Source of the DNA: Patescibacteria group bacterium
GTDB lineage: Bacteria; Patescibacteriota; Microgenomatia; Levybacterales; UBA12049
Direction of reading: 5' to 3'
Assembly (NCBI GenBank): GCA_035510695.1
Contig: DATKGO010000070.1
Span: 1 to 43,057 of the forward strand
Length of the DNA: 43,057 nucleotides
Shown here: piece by piece, positions 2,376 through 20,604 of the stretch
How the letters are laid out: every line of letters starts with the position of its first letter
Numbering within the stretch: position 1 is the first letter of the stretch
The notes under the pieces: generated by a model
Seen by the model: only the letters and a program-made list of their open reading frames with translations
The model's database searches: none
What the model was told of the DNA's origin: nothing
Translations under genes and position numbers: made by a program

Positions 2376-2499
2376 AAAAAGCTCTCACCAGCGACGAATC
2401 ACTCCGCCTACCACACTTTCGCGTGATAGCCTCGACGGCGCTCTGGTAAGAGCTTACTTCCGTCGAGGTCTTTCTGCCATGCCCGCAATTACTTGCGGG
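2376..2499 (-). promoter_or_regulatory. Candidate cis-regulatory structured RNA (riboswitch- or attenuator-like leader) of the DUF805 gene
   Basis: A GC-rich island in AT-rich DNA. On the minus strand it forms CCCGCAA-GUAA-UUGCGGG (2499-2482), CCUCGACGG/CCGUCGAGG (2468-2460 with 2438-2430) enclosing GCUCU-UACC-AGAGC (2453-2440), and UAUCACGC-GAAA-GUGUGGUA (2428-2409). An alternative 11-bp helix, GCUCUUACCAG (2453-2443) with CUGGUGAGAGC (2391-2381), is followed by U5 and then GU-AUG. The G-U pairs and GNRA loops exist only on the minus-strand transcript. Confidence 0.55.
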
Positions 2500-5164: not shown

Positions 5165-5165
5165 A

Positions 5166-5402
5166 TTAAATTGTTGAATATATTCTTGTTTTTAATTCAT
5201 TTATATTTTCTATTAATGCTCGCGCCTCAACTGATATTTTCCTGTTCCAATAATGGCTGATGGTCTCTTGAGCTTTATCTTCTGGATCTGCAAAAACAAA
5301 TATTGCGAACTTAGGATTTTCCCGTTCCAATCTCAAAAGTGAGAAGCCTGCGGTTTTGAGGACTACTGCTTGATAAAAATCGTTGAGTTTAAATTCTTTC
5401 AT
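5166..5402 (-). CDS. DUF5659-like small protein
   Basis: The pattern FYQAVVLKTAGFSLLRLERENPKFAIFVFADPEDKAQETISHYWNRK...LKTRI matches my memory of the DUF5659 family, which is common in phage and CPR mobile DNA. Confidence 0.5.
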   Translation of the reverse strand: MKEFKLNDFYQAVVLKTAGFSLLRLERENPKFAIFVFADPEDKAQETISHYWNRKISVEARALIENINELKTRIYSTI

Positions 5403-6900: not shown

Positions 6901-7122
6901 ATGGTAAATAGTAAATCAACCACATTCTCTCCTTCTGATCCTACATCTTGGTCGTCTCTGCTTACTGTCAGTCAAGTTGCGCAAATTTTAAATCTTAGCC
7001 CGTGGACACTGAGACAGTGGGACATAAAAATGAAGTTAGTGGCTTTAAGAGTAGGAAATAGAAAAGATCGTAGGTATAAAAAGGAAGATATTCTGACAAT
7101 AGTTGAAAAAGGATTGAAGTAA
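6901..7122 (+). CDS. Excisionase/MerR-like helix-turn-helix protein (possible recombination directionality factor)
   Basis: LTVSQVAQILNLSPWTLRQWD...RVGNRKDRRYKKEDI resembles the HTH_17/excisionase family. Lies immediately upstream of the recombinase. Confidence 0.6.
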   Translation: MVNSKSTTFSPSDPTSWSSLLTVSQVAQILNLSPWTLRQWDIKMKLVALRVGNRKDRRYKKEDILTIVEKGLK

Positions 7123-7150
7123 AAAATTATTCAATCCTTACAAATGTAAT

Positions 7151-8722
7151 ATGGAAAATAAATTTAAAATAAGAGCCGTAATTTACGCCCGTGTTTCAAC
7201 CAAGGAACAGGCGGAAGATAAAATATCTATTCCTTCTCAAATAAATGACTCTAGAAAAACGATCGCAGAGCGTGGATGGGAATTAGTTCACGAACCATAT
7301 GCTGATGAAGGCATAAGTGGACATTTGCTTGAAGAAAGACGGGGGTTACAAAGCCTTCTTCAAGATGCAAGGCAACACGCATTTGATTTAGTAGTGGTAA
7401 AAGATTTCGATAGGTTTGCGCGCAATCGTGCGGCTGCAACTATTGTGAGAGAGGAATTGAAAGAATTATTTATTCAAACTTATGCGCTCAATACACCGGT
7501 TGAACCAAAAGATCCTAATAAATACGACCCTACCGATGATGATTTAGCAATCATGGTTGAAGGTTTCTCAGATGCAAATTCTGAAATAGAGCGAAATAAA
7601 ATAAGGAGAAGAATGATGATGGGTAAAGTAGCAGTCGCAAAATCAGGTAAAATTCCAAACAACGTACCTTACGGGTACAAAATTATCAGATCTATTGACG
7701 ATCACGGCAAAGTTCACAGAGAAATAATCGTAGATGAGGAGCAGGCAAAAAATGTGCGCTGGATATTTGATCAATATATTAACGGCAAAGGTGCTTTGAA
7801 TATCGCCTTCCAACTAACTGAAAAAGGTATTAAGCCTATTAGAGGTCAATTTTGGAGAGCGCAAGCAATCAAATACATACTTCAAAATAGAACCTATACG
7901 GGAAAAGTGTTATGGGGATGGAGACACGCTGAATACAAGAAAAATCAACAAAGAAAACTAAGAGGACATAAAGGCATTATAGAAAATGGAGAACACAAAG
8001 CAATTATTCCGGAGCCTACTTTTGAACTCGCACAAAAAGAAAAGAAAATTAGAGGAAGCTCACAAAAAGGGAGAGCGCAATTAAGTAGGGGCTTACTTAC
8101 CGGAATTGCAAAATGTATTCGTTGCAAATCAGGAGTTACATATCTTACTCGCCATCATAAAAGAAAGAAGAAAAACCCAAAGTGGAACGATACAACAACC
8201 CACGAATATTTGTGTGGAGGCTACAAATACAGTGGGATTTGTCAAAGAAGAGTTATGAGTGCAACGCGACTTGAAGAATTTGTTCTCAATCAAATCAGAA
8301 ATTTAATCAACAATCCACTGATAAGGGAAAAGTTAATCTTTGATAGAAGTGTCAACATTTCGGAAGGCTTTGAAGACGACTACAAACATGCCGCTAAAAT
8401 GCTCAACGACATACAAAGAAGACGAGGACGGGTAAAAGAGGCTTTCGAAGCAGGAATTGATTCCTTAGAGGTCTACGGGGCTAATATAAGACGACTTGAT
8501 GATGAAGAGTCAAAGTACCATGCGGTAGCCGATGATTATCAAATTCGCATTCAGAAATTTAATGAACGCAGAGAAGAGCTGGAAAAGTTCACTAAATCTT
8601 TGGAAGACTTCAATACTTTATGGGATAATGCAGATTTTCAAGAAAAGAAACATTTCCTGCGTACAATTTTAAAAGAAGTTAGAGCCGGTAATGGAAAAAT
8701 AGAAATTGATTTTCGCCTCTAA
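7151..8722 (+). CDS. Large serine recombinase (integrase)
   Basis: N-terminal resolvase catalytic domain (AVIYARVSTKEQ, DLVVVKDFDRFARN). This is followed by a recombinase domain, a Zn-ribbon (CIRCKSG...CGGYKYSGIC) and a C-terminal coiled coil. Length is 523 aa. Confidence 0.9.
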   Translation: MENKFKIRAVIYARVSTKEQAEDKISIPSQINDSRKTIAERGWELVHEPYADEGISGHLLEERRGLQSLLQDARQHAFDLVVVKDFDRFARNRAAATIVREELKELFIQTYALNTPVEPKDPNKYDPTDDDLAIMVEGFSDANSEIERNKIRRRMMMGKVAVAKSGKIPNNVPYGYKIIRSIDDHGKVHREIIVDEEQAKNVRWIFDQYINGKGALNIAFQLTEKGIKPIRGQFWRAQAIKYILQNRTYTGKVLWGWRHAEYKKNQQRKLRGHKGIIENGEHKAIIPEPTFELAQKEKKIRGSSQKGRAQLSRGLLTGIAKCIRCKSGVTYLTRHHKRKKKNPKWNDTTTHEYLCGGYKYSGICQRRVMSATRLEEFVLNQIRNLINNPLIREKLIFDRSVNISEGFEDDYKHAAKMLNDIQRRRGRVKEAFEAGIDSLEVYGANIRRLDDEESKYHAVADDYQIRIQKFNERREELEKFTKSLEDFNTLWDNADFQEKKHFLRTILKEVRAGNGKIEIDFRL

Positions 8723-8791: not shown

Positions 8792-11512
8792 TTACTCCTG
8801 CGGCGTATGAGGTTCCCTATTTAAGTGGCACTTCTTCCACTTCTTTCCACTTCCACACCAACAGGGATCGTTGCGACCCAACTGTTTACTACTATTTACA
8901 GTTTGCGGCTTTTCCTTTTTCGCTTTCACTTTCCTAGCATCTTCACTCAATTCGCCTTCAGGAGTATTAGTCACCATCCGTGGTTGTGGAACCGACTCTT
9001 GCTGCGGTGCGGTAGGAGTTGGAGCTTGCTGCACCTGAATTTTATAAATTCTATGCACAATTTCATCATCAATCGAAACTAACAATTGTTCAAATAATCT
9101 AAAACCTTCATTTTTATACTCAACTAATGGATCTCTCTGCGCGTAGCCGCGCAAACCAATACCTTGACGCAAATTATCCATCACATCCAGATGATTCATC
9201 CACAGCGTATCAATCACGTTTAAACTCACACCGCGTTCGATTTGCTGGCTCAACGGCTCACCAAACATTTCCACTCGCTTTAGATAAACATTTCGGCACA
9301 TATTCGACAAAAACTCTATTTTCTGCTCATTCAAAGGATACTGTTCAAGCTGTTTCACCAATTGCTGCTGGGAGGCCTGATCAAAAGGAATAATCGTCTG
9401 CAGATCGGCAATAATCTTCTCGTTTACCGATAAATCCGTCACACTCGCTAAGCTGACAATACTAGACAATGATTGCTGAATTTTCTGCAAAATCTCTTCA
9501 CGGATAGCAGCTCCTTCTTTTGCTTCCAAAACCTCTCGTCTTCGCGAATAAATAATCTCACGCTGTTTATTTAAAACATCATCATATTCGACCAAATGTT
9601 TACGGTTATCAAAATAAAATCCTTCTACTTTCACCTGCGCATTTTCAATTGCTTTGGAGACAAACTGATGCGTCAAAGGTACGTCTTCCGGCATATTAAA
9701 ACGCGTCATAATGCCGGCAATTTTATCGCCGCCGAAGAGCCGCATGATTTCGTCGTCCAACCCAACGAAAAACTGCGACACGCCGGGATCACCCTGACGG
9801 CCTGAACGACCACGCAGCTGATTATCAATCCGGCGCGACTCATGCCGTTCCGTTCCTATAACGTACAAACCGCCTAAACGCACAACCTCGTCGTGTTCTT
9901 TCTTCCATTTCTCCAACTCTTTTTGATAGGCTTTTTCATTCTCTGTGGGATTTGGCTGTTCACCGCCAAGTACAATATCAACGCCTCGGCCTGCCATGTT
10001 CGTAGCAATTGTCACCGCGCCTTTTTTACCGGCTTGCGCGATAATTTCCGCTTCTTTCAAATGATTTTTGGCATTCAAAACCTTATGCGGAATTTTTCTC
10101 CGTTTCAATAATTCCGAAACAATTTCGTTTTTCTCAATAGAAGTGGTGCCGACCAAAACCGGCTGACCTGTTTTATATACTTTTTCAATTTCCGCCACTA
10201 CCGCGGAAAATTTCGCCCGTCCGGTTTTATAAATGATATCGGCCCGATCGTCTCTAACCATGGGATTATTCGTCGGGATTACAACCACATCCAGATTGTA
10301 GATTTTATGAAATTCTTCCGATTCGGTAACGGCTGTCCCGGTCATACCGGCCAATCTTCCATAAAGTCGGAAATAATTCTGTAAAGAAACCGTCGCCATC
10401 GTCTTGGATTCTTTTTGAATCGGAACATTTTCTTTCGCTTCAATCGCCTGATGAATTCCTTCCGACAACCGCCGACCCACCATTAAACGGCCGGTAAATT
10501 CATCTACTAAAATGACCTCATTATCACGGACAATATAATCTTTTTCCCGATGAAAAAGCGTCCTGGCTTTTAACGCCGCTTCCAAATGATAAACCGTGTC
10601 AAAATCCGTCTCATAAATATTTTTTATTCCATACAGTTTTTCAATTTTTCCGATTCCGTGATCGGTCAAATGAACTGTCCGCATTTTTTCATCCACCTTA
10701 TAATCAATTTCCGAAATTAATTTATCTACAATTTGCGCGTATTCATAATAGCGCTGCGACGGAGCTTCATCCGGCGCTGAAATAATGTGCGGTGTTCTCG
10801 CCTCATCAATGAGAACCGAATCAACCTCGTCAACAATGGCATAATAATTACTGCGCTGGACTACCTGCTCGATAGTTTGCGCCATGTTATCACGTAAATA
10901 ATCAAAACCAAATTCCGAATTAATCCCGTAAACCACATCACACTGATAAGCTTCTTTTCTGCTGATTAATTTTAAGTGTGCTAAACGTGGATCCGCGGCA
11001 TTTTCATCGATGAAATCCCGCTCATATTTGAAAGATTGCTCGCTGATAATCGAGGCAATAGTAATACCAAGTAGAGAAAAAATCGGCCCCATCCAGCCGG
11101 CATCACGTCGAGCCAAATAATCGTTGACTGTCACCAAATGCACGCCCTTGCCGGTCAATGCATGCAAATACAACGCGGGAATAGCGGCTAAGGTTTTTCC
11201 TTCTCCGGTTTTCTGTTCGGCGATTTTACCACGCGCCAAAGCAATCGCCGCCATAATCTGCACGTCATAATGATACAAACCAATGGTTCTCCTGGCTGCT
11301 TCACGCACCAGAGCAAAAGCTTCCGGCAAAATACTGTCCAGACTCTCGCCTTTGGCTATCCTGTCTTTAAACTCCTGCGTCTTTTTGGGGAAATCTTTAT
11401 CTTTATATTTTTTAACGACAGCACCCAAATCGTTAATTTGGTTAACAATCGGCTGCATGCGTCCGACTTCGCGTTCATTGGAATCTAATAATTTATTTAA
11501 AAGAGGTAACAT
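8792..11512 (-). CDS. secA: Preprotein translocase ATPase SecA
   Basis: Walker A MKTGEGKT equivalent (QKTGEGKTL), DEVDS motif, TNMAGRGVDI, and a C-terminal Zn finger CWCGSGKKWKKCH. Length is 906 aa. Confidence 0.97.
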   Translation of the reverse strand: MLPLLNKLLDSNEREVGRMQPIVNQINDLGAVVKKYKDKDFPKKTQEFKDRIAKGESLDSILPEAFALVREAARRTIGLYHYDVQIMAAIALARGKIAEQKTGEGKTLAAIPALYLHALTGKGVHLVTVNDYLARRDAGWMGPIFSLLGITIASIISEQSFKYERDFIDENAADPRLAHLKLISRKEAYQCDVVYGINSEFGFDYLRDNMAQTIEQVVQRSNYYAIVDEVDSVLIDEARTPHIISAPDEAPSQRYYEYAQIVDKLISEIDYKVDEKMRTVHLTDHGIGKIEKLYGIKNIYETDFDTVYHLEAALKARTLFHREKDYIVRDNEVILVDEFTGRLMVGRRLSEGIHQAIEAKENVPIQKESKTMATVSLQNYFRLYGRLAGMTGTAVTESEEFHKIYNLDVVVIPTNNPMVRDDRADIIYKTGRAKFSAVVAEIEKVYKTGQPVLVGTTSIEKNEIVSELLKRRKIPHKVLNAKNHLKEAEIIAQAGKKGAVTIATNMAGRGVDIVLGGEQPNPTENEKAYQKELEKWKKEHDEVVRLGGLYVIGTERHESRRIDNQLRGRSGRQGDPGVSQFFVGLDDEIMRLFGGDKIAGIMTRFNMPEDVPLTHQFVSKAIENAQVKVEGFYFDNRKHLVEYDDVLNKQREIIYSRRREVLEAKEGAAIREEILQKIQQSLSSIVSLASVTDLSVNEKIIADLQTIIPFDQASQQQLVKQLEQYPLNEQKIEFLSNMCRNVYLKRVEMFGEPLSQQIERGVSLNVIDTLWMNHLDVMDNLRQGIGLRGYAQRDPLVEYKNEGFRLFEQLLVSIDDEIVHRIYKIQVQQAPTPTAPQQESVPQPRMVTNTPEGELSEDARKVKAKKEKPQTVNSSKQLGRNDPCWCGSGKKWKKCHLNREPHTPQE

Positions 11513-19755: not shown

Positions 19756-20604
19756 ATGGGGACACTAAGTGTTAAACGCCTACTGCTGATCGGCTTTATT
19801 GTTGTTTTACTCCTTGCCATTCCGGCCACCTTATATATTTTGAAACAGCAATCCAATACCCAAAGCCATGCCGTAAAATCAACCAATCTTTCATTTACAC
19901 CTACTTCTTCACCTACTTCACCCATTAATGCTAATGTCGGAGATTCAATTCCACTTACTGTTTATGTTGATCCCGTACAAAATTCCGTCACTTTTTTACA
20001 ACTTGAAATCGATTATGATCCTTCTGTGTTGCAGGTAGATCAATCAAGTTTTAAAGTAAATAATAGTACGTTCCCGACCATAATTAGCGGTCCAACTTTT
20101 TCCAGCGGAAAAATTACGGCTCAAATATCTACCGGAGCTAATCCTACAAGTGCCTTAACTAAAGCTGCGGCAGCGGCAACGATTAACTTTACTGCCCTGG
20201 CTCCTACCAGTTCCGGCCAGCCTACAGAAATAAAATATAATACGGCCTTAGGATCAAATAACGCATCAAATACAGTAGTTCTCTCAGCCGGCAGCTCGGA
20301 TACGGCAAGTGAAAATGTTCTGTCCACTGCAACTTCTGCCTATATAGCTATCGGCGGTGGTACTCCCACCGACACGCCTACACCAACTGTCGCTGTTGCA
20401 GTAGCAACGCCTACACCTGCTTCGTCTAGCGGCGTTCTAGAGGCTCCCACCGATACGCCAACTGAAACGCCAACCGACACGCTTACACCTATTATACCGA
20501 CAAATACCATCGCACCTACCGGATCAACCGAGGTCACATTTGGGGTTGGGGCTGTCTTAACCGTAGTAACCGTAGTCGGAGGCATTCTATTCTTCGTGTT
20601 ATAA
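19756..20604 (+). CDS. Secreted or surface protein: signal/anchor, cohesin-like beta domain, Pro/Thr-rich linker, then IAPTG followed by a C-terminal hydrophobic helix (possible sortase substrate)
   Basis: N-terminal LLLIGFIVVLLLAIPATLYIL. A cohesin-like segment GDSIPLTVYVDPVQNSVTFLQLEIDYDPSVLQVD. TPTDTPTPT repeats. C-terminus IAPTGSTEVTFGVGAVLTVVTVVGGILFFVL. Confidence 0.6.
   Translation: MGTLSVKRLLLIGFIVVLLLAIPATLYILKQQSNTQSHAVKSTNLSFTPTSSPTSPINANVGDSIPLTVYVDPVQNSVTFLQLEIDYDPSVLQVDQSSFKVNNSTFPTIISGPTFSSGKITAQISTGANPTSALTKAAAAATINFTALAPTSSGQPTEIKYNTALGSNNASNTVVLSAGSSDTASENVLSTATSAYIAIGGGTPTDTPTPTVAVAVATPTPASSSGVLEAPTDTPTETPTDTLTPIIPTNTIAPTGSTEVTFGVGAVLTVVTVVGGILFFVL

Follow-up and report, generated by a model that had tools for sequence, protein, structure and literature searches.

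A LOOT RNA lies directly upstream of a DUF805 gene

The DNA considered here, which we call the window, is a stretch of 43,057 nucleotides (nt) from a Patescibacteria group bacterium (contig DATKGO010000070.1, positions 1 to 43,057). Near its left end a minus-strand gene (1519–2373) encodes a 284-amino-acid membrane protein with an N-terminal DUF805 domain, and directly upstream of its ATG at 2373 lies a GC-rich cluster of hairpins, which a preliminary description, made by inspection of the sequence, had put forward as a candidate novel riboswitch or attenuator. When the whole window was scanned against Rfam at gathering thresholds, the only match was to the LOOT RNA (RF03000), at 2507–2393 and on the minus strand only, with a score of 81.7 bits (gathering score 46.4; E = 5e-14) and with all 121 model positions (1–121) covered. 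The hairpin cluster is a copy of this known, uncharacterised RNA; it is neither a new riboswitch class nor a DUF805 motif. The DUF805 and DUF805b motifs, which the preliminary description had named without deciding whether the RNA belongs to either, gave no match in 2250–2650 at E ≤ 10 nor in the whole window at gathering thresholds, and a permissive scan of the same interval returned, besides LOOT, three chance-level matches (E 0.45–1.3) and no DUF805-associated motif.

The full element extends beyond the Rfam model, from 2507 to 2374 (134 nt), with a promoter region reaching 2533, and a covariance model built from the homologous copies described below (R1) finds one LOOT copy in the window. 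The GC content across 2507–2374 is 0.56, compared with about 0.35 in the surroundings, so that the GC-rich island first noted in this AT-rich DNA is real and slightly larger than had been described. According to the Rfam alignment, P1 (2507–2475) consists of an outer stem UGCC/GGCA, an internal loop CCUAAAC/GCAUGG and an inner hairpin CCCGCAA-GUAA-UUGCGGG (2499–2482). It is followed by P2 (2468–2430), in which a 9-bp lower stem, CCUCGACGG (2468–2460) with CCGUCGAGG (2438–2430), leads through an A-rich linker to the small apical hairpin GCUCU-UACC-AGAGC; by P3 (2428–2409), which has 8 bp and a near-invariant GAAA loop at 2420–2417 (UAUCACGC-GAAA-GUGUGGUA); and by P4 (2408–2393), GGCGGA-GUGA-UUCGUC, the final element of the Rfam model. 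The features of LOOT are thus all found in the window: four serial hairpins, the CCUAA/GCAUGG loop in P1, an A-rich joiner between P1 and P2, and GAAA on P3. By eye, the window copy is closest to those in metagenome-assembled genomes (MAGs) of Levybacteria, Roizmanbacteria and Shapirobacteria. This likeness and the low GC content of the window suggest a host from the Candidate Phyla Radiation, probably a Microgenomates-like one.

The minimum free energy fold reproduces the Rfam hairpins P1 to P4, whilst the centroid fold uses an alternative pairing between 2453–2443 and 2391–2381. All three hairpins drawn by eye in the preliminary description are present on the minus strand (2499–2482, 2468–2430 and 2428–2409); the outer P1 stem with its receptor-like internal loop, and P4, had been missed, and there are three GNRA loops rather than two. 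The fold z-score is −4.86 for the minus strand and nearly equal, −4.78, for the plus strand, so folding energy alone does not pick the strand, and the strand assignment rests on the Rfam match and the G–U pairs. Together with the covariation of the helices in homologues, these two lines of evidence bear out the proposal that a structured RNA functions here in the gene's own orientation.

The alternative 11-bp helix had also been recognised correctly. Its 5′ strand, GCUCUUACCAG (2453–2443), overlaps the 5′ half and the loop of the P2 apical hairpin; its 3′ strand, CUGGUGAGAGC (2391–2381), lies beyond the Rfam model and contains a Shine–Dalgarno (SD)-like sequence, GGUGAGAG, whose role in translation is putative. 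The helix, which we call PT, has one G–U pair in the window and is followed by the U tract UUUUUGU (2380–2374) and then, directly 3′, by the start codon at 2373.

Helices P1 to P4 are conserved in homologous copies

Homologues were collected with a search pattern taken from P1 (TGCCTAAAC, a spacer of 14–20 nt, then GCATGGCANAAA), which matched one viral contig in IMG/VR and 84 stretches in species-representative genomes. After six chance matches and three loci with truncated copies only had been set aside, 78 full copies were kept, the window included, and the family comparisons rest on these. A further full copy, missed by the pattern, was caught by the covariance model (locus L073, 5873–6016).

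The preliminary description had suggested covariation in homologous regions as a check, and the outcome is support for the helices, the tail helix PT (treated below) among them. In the inner stem of P1, six of seven pairs have changed on both sides. All eight pairs of P3 covary, with 97% of cells paired, and all five counted pairs of P4 have changed on both sides, with 90% of cells paired. For the lower P2 stem, cognate strands pair with −17.3 kcal/mol, compared with −4.9 kcal/mol for non-cognate strands, and the cognate partner is the best of the 78 in 74 loci.

The GAAA columns of P3 are invariant or at least 90% conserved, and the internal loop of P1 resembles a known partner for such a loop. 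The consensus of the GAAA/11-nt receptor is CCUAAG/UAUGG (PMC2615604), and the P1 loop CCUAAAC/GCAUGG corresponds to the core of this receptor with one inserted nucleotide; the second L073 copy has CCUAAC/GUAUGG at this place. Judged from these sequences, P1 and P3 are probably braced against each other, the GAAA loop of P3 docking into the receptor-like loop of P1. The invariance of the receptor within the 78 copies was imposed, because the search pattern fixed its sequence; the Rfam consensus shows the same conserved receptor-loop letters.

A tail helix precedes a U-rich tract

Downstream of P4, nearly all copies have a GC-rich strand, for instance CUGGCGGCGGGC, and after it UUUGUGU or UUUUUGU. 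This tail strand is complementary to the apex of P2, with several U–G pairs, and forms the helix PT, which is absent from the Rfam model because the model ends at P4 (position 2393 in the window). RNAalifold, applied to a MAFFT alignment that is blind to structure, selected PT unprompted. In that alignment PT comprises 18 pairs, of which 16 have changed on both sides, with 79.9% of cells paired, and sliding the 3′ partners by one to three columns lowered whole-structure pairing from 85% to 40–47%. In the covariance-model alignment, whose model has no PT pairs, there are 17 pairs, 15 of them changed on both sides, with 81.7% of cells paired; one such pair, for example, is CG in 33 copies, UA in 29, UG in 15 and something else in one. 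Independently of any alignment, cognate apex and tail strands pair with −25.4 ± 3.1 kcal/mol, compared with −15.7 ± 5.2 kcal/mol when the strands come from different loci, and the cognate tail ranks first of the 78 in 32 loci and sixth or better in 62. Since many of the PT pairs are U–G, the helix exists only on this RNA strand.

At the end of the tail, at least five U are found within some 8-nt window in 74 of the 78 copies. The proposed terminator or sequestrator helix is thus kept with compensatory changes across the homologues and is followed by a U tract in nearly all of them. The arrangement that defines an intrinsic terminator, a GC-rich stem directly before a U-rich tract, is found in the window as CUGGUGAGAGC followed by UUUUUGU, and PT together with the U tract would form such a terminator. 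It is atypical in that its ‘loop’ holds P3 and P4, and a simple terminator scanner does not report it.

Some loci show additional pairing beyond the U tract. By eye, the tail and a downstream complementary segment can form a conventional hairpin followed by a U run, a second terminator-like site, at L070 (4280–4330) and L058 (about 600–660). A segment complementary to the tail also occurs just after the U tract in L073 (6005–6050) and in L007, L047, L050, L071 and L085, followed by a degenerate copy of ‘GGCAUAAAA plus the P2 5′ strand’, which abuts the start codon in L007 and in the second L073 copy. This downstream copy is either an anti-SD/anti-anti-SD arrangement or a recombination scar between LOOT units. 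As a general third element, pairing of the tail with the 80 nt downstream was rejected: cognate pairs have only a slight advantage over non-cognate ones (−10.9 versus −9.4 kcal/mol), and strong complementarity is confined to about one third of loci and is lacking from the window. A second, downstream occurrence of the P2 5′ strand, as in an anti-SD design, was likewise discarded as a feature of the family, being found in 5 of 75 loci, with 2.6% in controls, and thus anecdotal.

The tail helix competes with the apical hairpin of P2

The strand that P2 contributes to PT includes, according to the subgroup, either the 5′ half and loop of the apical hairpin (as in the window) or its loop and 3′ half, whereas the lower P2 stem and the core of PT share no nucleotides. 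The helices had been described as mutually exclusive, and this is correct for the small apical hairpin, with which the tail helix competes directly; with the 9-bp lower stem the conflict is topological, that of a pseudoknot. The apical hairpin itself is weak (mean −5.8 kcal/mol) and clearly under selection, with a mean z of −2.2 relative to shuffled sequences and z < −1 in 70 of 78 copies, and its loop keeps a YCGUY-like consensus. Folds constrained to leave the tail free (the P2 state) or to leave the 3′ strand of P2 free (the PT state) are nearly iso-energetic, both across the family (a difference of +1.3 ± 5.6 kcal/mol) and in the window (−55.1 and −54.6 kcal/mol, respectively). We infer a switch, in which the tail opens the apical hairpin and perhaps P2 as well, in preference to a static H-type pseudoknot, because a static pseudoknot need not keep a hairpin that it must break.

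LOOT has the position of a leader

In 47 of 77 LOOT loci a −10-like hexamer, often TGn-extended by eye, lies 4–9 nt (mode 6–7) before an ACAAYT motif (ACAAYTTAAT). The degenerate form of this motif has 87 matches in 1.2 Mb, of which 33 fall in the 18-nt interval just upstream of LOOT. In the window the corresponding sequence, ACAATTTAAT (2517–2508), is immediately 5′ of P1 and near the likely transcription start, and the putative −10 region (2533–2520) is made up of TGgTATTCT (2533–2525) overlapping TATACT (2525–2520). The preliminary description had placed TATACT at 2528–2523, three nucleotides away from its actual position, and the overlapping TGgTATTCT fits the promoter spacing of the family better. 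A helical role in the RNA for the conserved 5′ sequence ACAAUUUAAU was considered and rejected: its duplexes are weak (mean −4 kcal/mol), their positions are scattered and there is no consistent partner.

The first downstream gene is on the same strand as LOOT in 59 of 72 loci, whilst the upstream gene is divergent in 43 of 73. The gap between the U tract and the downstream open reading frame (ORF) has a median of 31 nt (interquartile range 22–47 nt) and is in most loci too short to hold a second promoter. LOOT therefore has the make-up of a leader, that is, a structured domain with an upstream −10 box and a close same-strand gene, and the family transcript, of about 135–160 nt, is promoter-proximal.

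Cargo genes, hosts and further copies

The genes that follow LOOT, its cargo, are varied. At least one hydrophobic segment is present in 50 of 73 downstream proteins, and 38 families were recognised among the 69 proteins compared with Pfam, the largest being zinc-ribbon membrane proteins (five) and DUF805 (three), with bPH_2, DUF6804, GtrA, DNA methylase, SNase, trypsin-like protease and CAP among the others. With DUF805 found in just three of these 69 proteins, a specific association between LOOT and DUF805 was rejected. PADLOC identified the candidate defence protein PDC-S11 (three cases) and type III methyltransferases (two), and PHROGs one Sie-like protein. In 22 loci the gene for a large serine recombinase is no more than 6 kb away, as a rule immediately upstream and divergently oriented, and terminase genes are found in about six loci and in the IMG/VR viral contig. 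This context suggests that LOOT is a portable promoter–leader module carried, mostly in the Candidate Phyla Radiation (CPR), by prophages and integrative elements that encode large serine recombinases. Its placement before varied membrane, secreted and defence-type accessory genes fits the pattern of a ‘moron’ cassette.

CPR or Patescibacteria lineages are named in 49 of the 72 genome loci with readable record titles, and include Saccharibacteria, Doudnabacteria, Roizmanbacteria, Levybacteria, Uhrbacteria, Staskawiczbacteria and Paceibacterota. Ten third-party MAG contigs (L012, L016, L019, L024, L027, L032, L035, L052, L061 and L076) are labelled ‘uncultured Gammaproteobacteria’. Their LOOT copies and neighbouring genes are like those of CPR genomes, and either the label may be doubtful or the host range of the element may be wider. 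Several copies are on contigs of 0.4–1.2 Mb, and thus within chromosomes.

Some genomes carry more than one LOOT unit, each with its own cargo, as on contig CAZAOT010000002.1 (L013 and L041) and in L073 (4604–4744 and 5873–6016). In one such case both units adjoin a serine recombinase and precede related ORFs of about 370–390 amino acids with no confirmed family match. These genomes fit a modular, repeatedly used leader. Truncated copies, found in L053 (888–1054, 1786–1952 and 2684–2832), L017 (5182–5329) and L074 (5267–5381), retain P1 and the P2 5′ strand, after which a start codon or unrelated sequence follows directly. The truncated leader of L053 forms, together with an ORF that looks NYN-like by eye, a tandem repeat with a period of 898 nt. 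The truncated copies look like deletion derivatives without the terminator.

The window element and the start of the DUF805 gene

The ORF that contains the DUF805 gene can be extended upstream to a TTG at 2508, and the doubt already cast on this start is well founded. The Pfam match to DUF805 (E = 1e-19) covers residues 8–122 counted from ATG 2373. Homology to the DUF805 cargo protein of L060 starts at residue 49 of the longer ORF, which is the fourth codon after ATG 2373, and the 45 extra residues encoded by LOOT match nothing. Judged by this sequence homology, the TTG start is wrong and the true start is ATG 2373. The protein belongs to PHROG 12855, of the category moron and described as a membrane protein.

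Between 6867 and at least 415, the minus-strand genes have the look of an integrated element whose left end is beyond the window; their products include a 471-residue P-loop protein, a Macro-domain protein and the DUF805 protein. In the gene run holding LOOT there were no Pfam matches, and only the ORF at 1026–1499 had a weak PHROG match, with no function assigned in that group. The run ends at an excisionase-like helix-turn-helix gene (73 amino acids, 6901–7122) and the gene for a 523-amino-acid large serine recombinase, which together occupy 6901–8722 on the plus strand, and these two genes abut secA (8792–11512, minus strand).

Two further sequence features of this region were seen. The 18-nt string TATAYTCAACAATTTAAT before LOOT (2508–2525) recurs at 5165–5182 on the minus strand with 17 of 18 matches, directly before ATG 5164, the start of a 72-amino-acid ORF that heads the gene run down to 2580; apparently the element employs one promoter or operator sequence at two places. 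Just past the stop of the ORF at 2580–2906, an inverted repeat, CACAGGTACCCTGTG (2561–2575), has a T run after it on the plus strand and an A run before it on the minus strand. It may be a bidirectional terminator parting the upstream operon from the LOOT promoter.

Interpretation

On balance, we lean towards the view that LOOT is a cis-acting leader that carries a conditional intrinsic terminator and controls a mobile-element cargo gene. During transcription, P2 would fold first, with its small apical hairpin. The emerging tail would then open the apical hairpin, so that PT forms just before the U tract and the transcript ends as a short RNA; were PT formation prevented or delayed, the polymerase would read into the cargo gene. 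Candidate triggers are an effector that holds the apical hairpin, a Mg2+-dependent tertiary fold, or kinetic partitioning that fixes read-through at a low level. In the window, PT would also bury the SD-like sequence GGUGAGAG, which lies 8 nt before the AUG at 2373.

Several points weigh against this view. Termination, read-through and the 5′ end are all things that we infer here. A pseudoknot of the H type, formed by the lower P2 stem and PT with a linker of about 6 nt, may be sterically possible, and would then make termination constitutive and the product a stand-alone small RNA. At about −19 kcal/mol, PT is much more stable than the hairpin at the P2 apex that it must displace (about −6 kcal/mol), and a switch therefore needs a stabilising factor or kinetic control. 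Nearly all of the invariant nucleotides are explained by the putative tetraloop–receptor pair, which leaves no obvious ligand pocket, and the downstream genes have no common function or metabolic theme that would point to a ligand. As to the data set, the use of a single exact P1 pattern means that the invariance of P1 was imposed by the search and that the diversity of the family is under-sampled, and the ORFs were called with a crude ORF finder.

A more specific form of the leader model is that LOOT is a class of effector-responsive attenuators specific to CPR mobile elements, either a riboswitch or a protein- or RNA-controlled antiterminator, in which a factor holding the P2 apical hairpin (YCGUY) would decide whether PT forms. 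We offer this only tentatively. Were it so, prophages and integrative elements would have a shared switch for exclusion, defence and surface-remodelling genes. As a riboswitch, LOOT is a candidate at most: there is no shared metabolic theme downstream and the invariant nucleotides are mostly explained by the tetraloop–receptor contact.

The strongest competitor of a cis-acting leader, and in our view an unlikely one, is a stand-alone, trans-acting small RNA in which a static H-type pseudoknot, made up of PT and the lower P2 stem, doubles as a constitutive terminator, and the cargo is expressed by leak-through only or is functionally unrelated. In its favour are the Rfam type of LOOT, ‘Gene; sRNA’, the strong covariation of both the PT core and the lower P2 stem, which have no nucleotides in common, a putative promoter of its own with a terminator-like 3′ end, and a cargo without common function. 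What this explanation leaves aside is the same-strand ORF at a median of 31 nt past the U tract, which has no room for a promoter and which a fully efficient terminator would silence. Nor would a static pseudoknot have any use for a selected apical hairpin that PT must break, and the window offers no candidate trans target, the sole other near-match to the apex/tail 11-mer (at 20200) being at chance level.

By analogy with the immunity RNAs of phages P4 (CI) and P1 (c4), the tail might instead pair both with the P2 apex and with a downstream b″ site, and LOOT, in cis or as a processed trans RNA, might cause premature termination and confer immunity specificity. The prophage and integrative-element context would suit such a role, as would the complementarity of tail and apex in all copies, their co-variation between elements, and the second tail-complementary site that about one third of loci have 1–12 nt past the U tract. 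We consider it improbable in view of the absence of this downstream site from most loci, including the window, the lack of an Rfam c4 match, and the nature of the controlled genes, which are cargo rather than lytic or replication genes.

It is more improbable still that LOOT acts at the DNA level, whether as an attachment site for a recombinase, as an origin or as an operator array. Its proximity to serine recombinase genes, the break of the truncated copies inside P2 and the equally low z-score of the plus-strand fold could be read in this way, but the compensatory changes include many U–G pairs, which would be A–C mismatches on the other strand, the Rfam match is strand-specific, in most loci the GAAA loop and U tract point the same way as the downstream gene, and the truncated copies appear to be deletions by which a start codon has been joined to P1 and the P2 5′ strand. 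Finally, the chance that the region is simply coding sequence, with the DUF805 protein starting at TTG 2508 and the hairpins incidental, is in our judgement negligible: the ORF is uninterrupted (2508–1519), but the DUF805 domain and the L060 homology begin only after ATG 2373, the same RNA precedes unrelated proteins at 66 other loci, and its substitutions preserve pairs, not codons.

Seen as a leader, the orphan LOOT RNA becomes directly testable as a regulatory element, since its tail helix, its U tract and the neighbouring ORF are defined. It is also a pointer to gene control by RNA in CPR bacteria and their mobile elements, where regulation is almost unexplored. For annotation, the gains are the corrected start at ATG 2373 and the use of LOOT as a marker for CPR prophage cargo cassettes.

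Relation to known systems

Terminator-type riboswitches, such as the c-di-GMP-I riboswitch, combine tetraloop–receptor-braced aptamers with an expression platform. LOOT resembles them in being a structured 5′ leader with a probable GNRA tetraloop–receptor brace and diverse downstream genes, and in having a 3′ strand that would compete for part of the aptamer-like domain and a stem that ends in a U tract before an ORF. It differs in that 2250–2650 gave no match to a riboswitch model and in that no conserved junction core suggests a ligand pocket. Moreover, the competing helix displaces only an apical hairpin of 4–6 bp and may coexist with the main P2 stem as a pseudoknot.

The P4 CI and P1/P7 c4 immunity RNAs are prophage-encoded and embedded in leaders, and their internal complementarity is linked to premature termination. 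In LOOT, by contrast, the second site is found in about one third of loci only and the genes controlled are cargo, and there is no similarity in sequence or model. With the DUF805 and DUF805b motifs LOOT shares, in this window, a position upstream of a DUF805 gene; their models do not match, and DUF805 is found at 3 of 69 loci.

LOOT itself came from the screen of metagenomic intergenic regions by Weinberg et al. in 2017 (PMC5737381), and it is shown as a metagenome-based family in Rfam 14 (PMC7779021). In the searchable literature, a scope that does not include the supplement of the discovery paper, there is no description of its function, host range, gene context or mechanism. The window copy agrees with RF03000 in its full-length match, the four-hairpin layout, the CCUAA...GCAUGG loop, the A-rich joiner and the GAAA loop, whereas that model does not cover the covarying tail helix with its U tract, nor the promoter motif, the downstream ORF or the mobile-element context in CPR genomes. 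Relative to the same literature, the integration of a terminator helix with P2, the consistent leader position and the assignment to the cargo of CPR mobile elements appear to be new.

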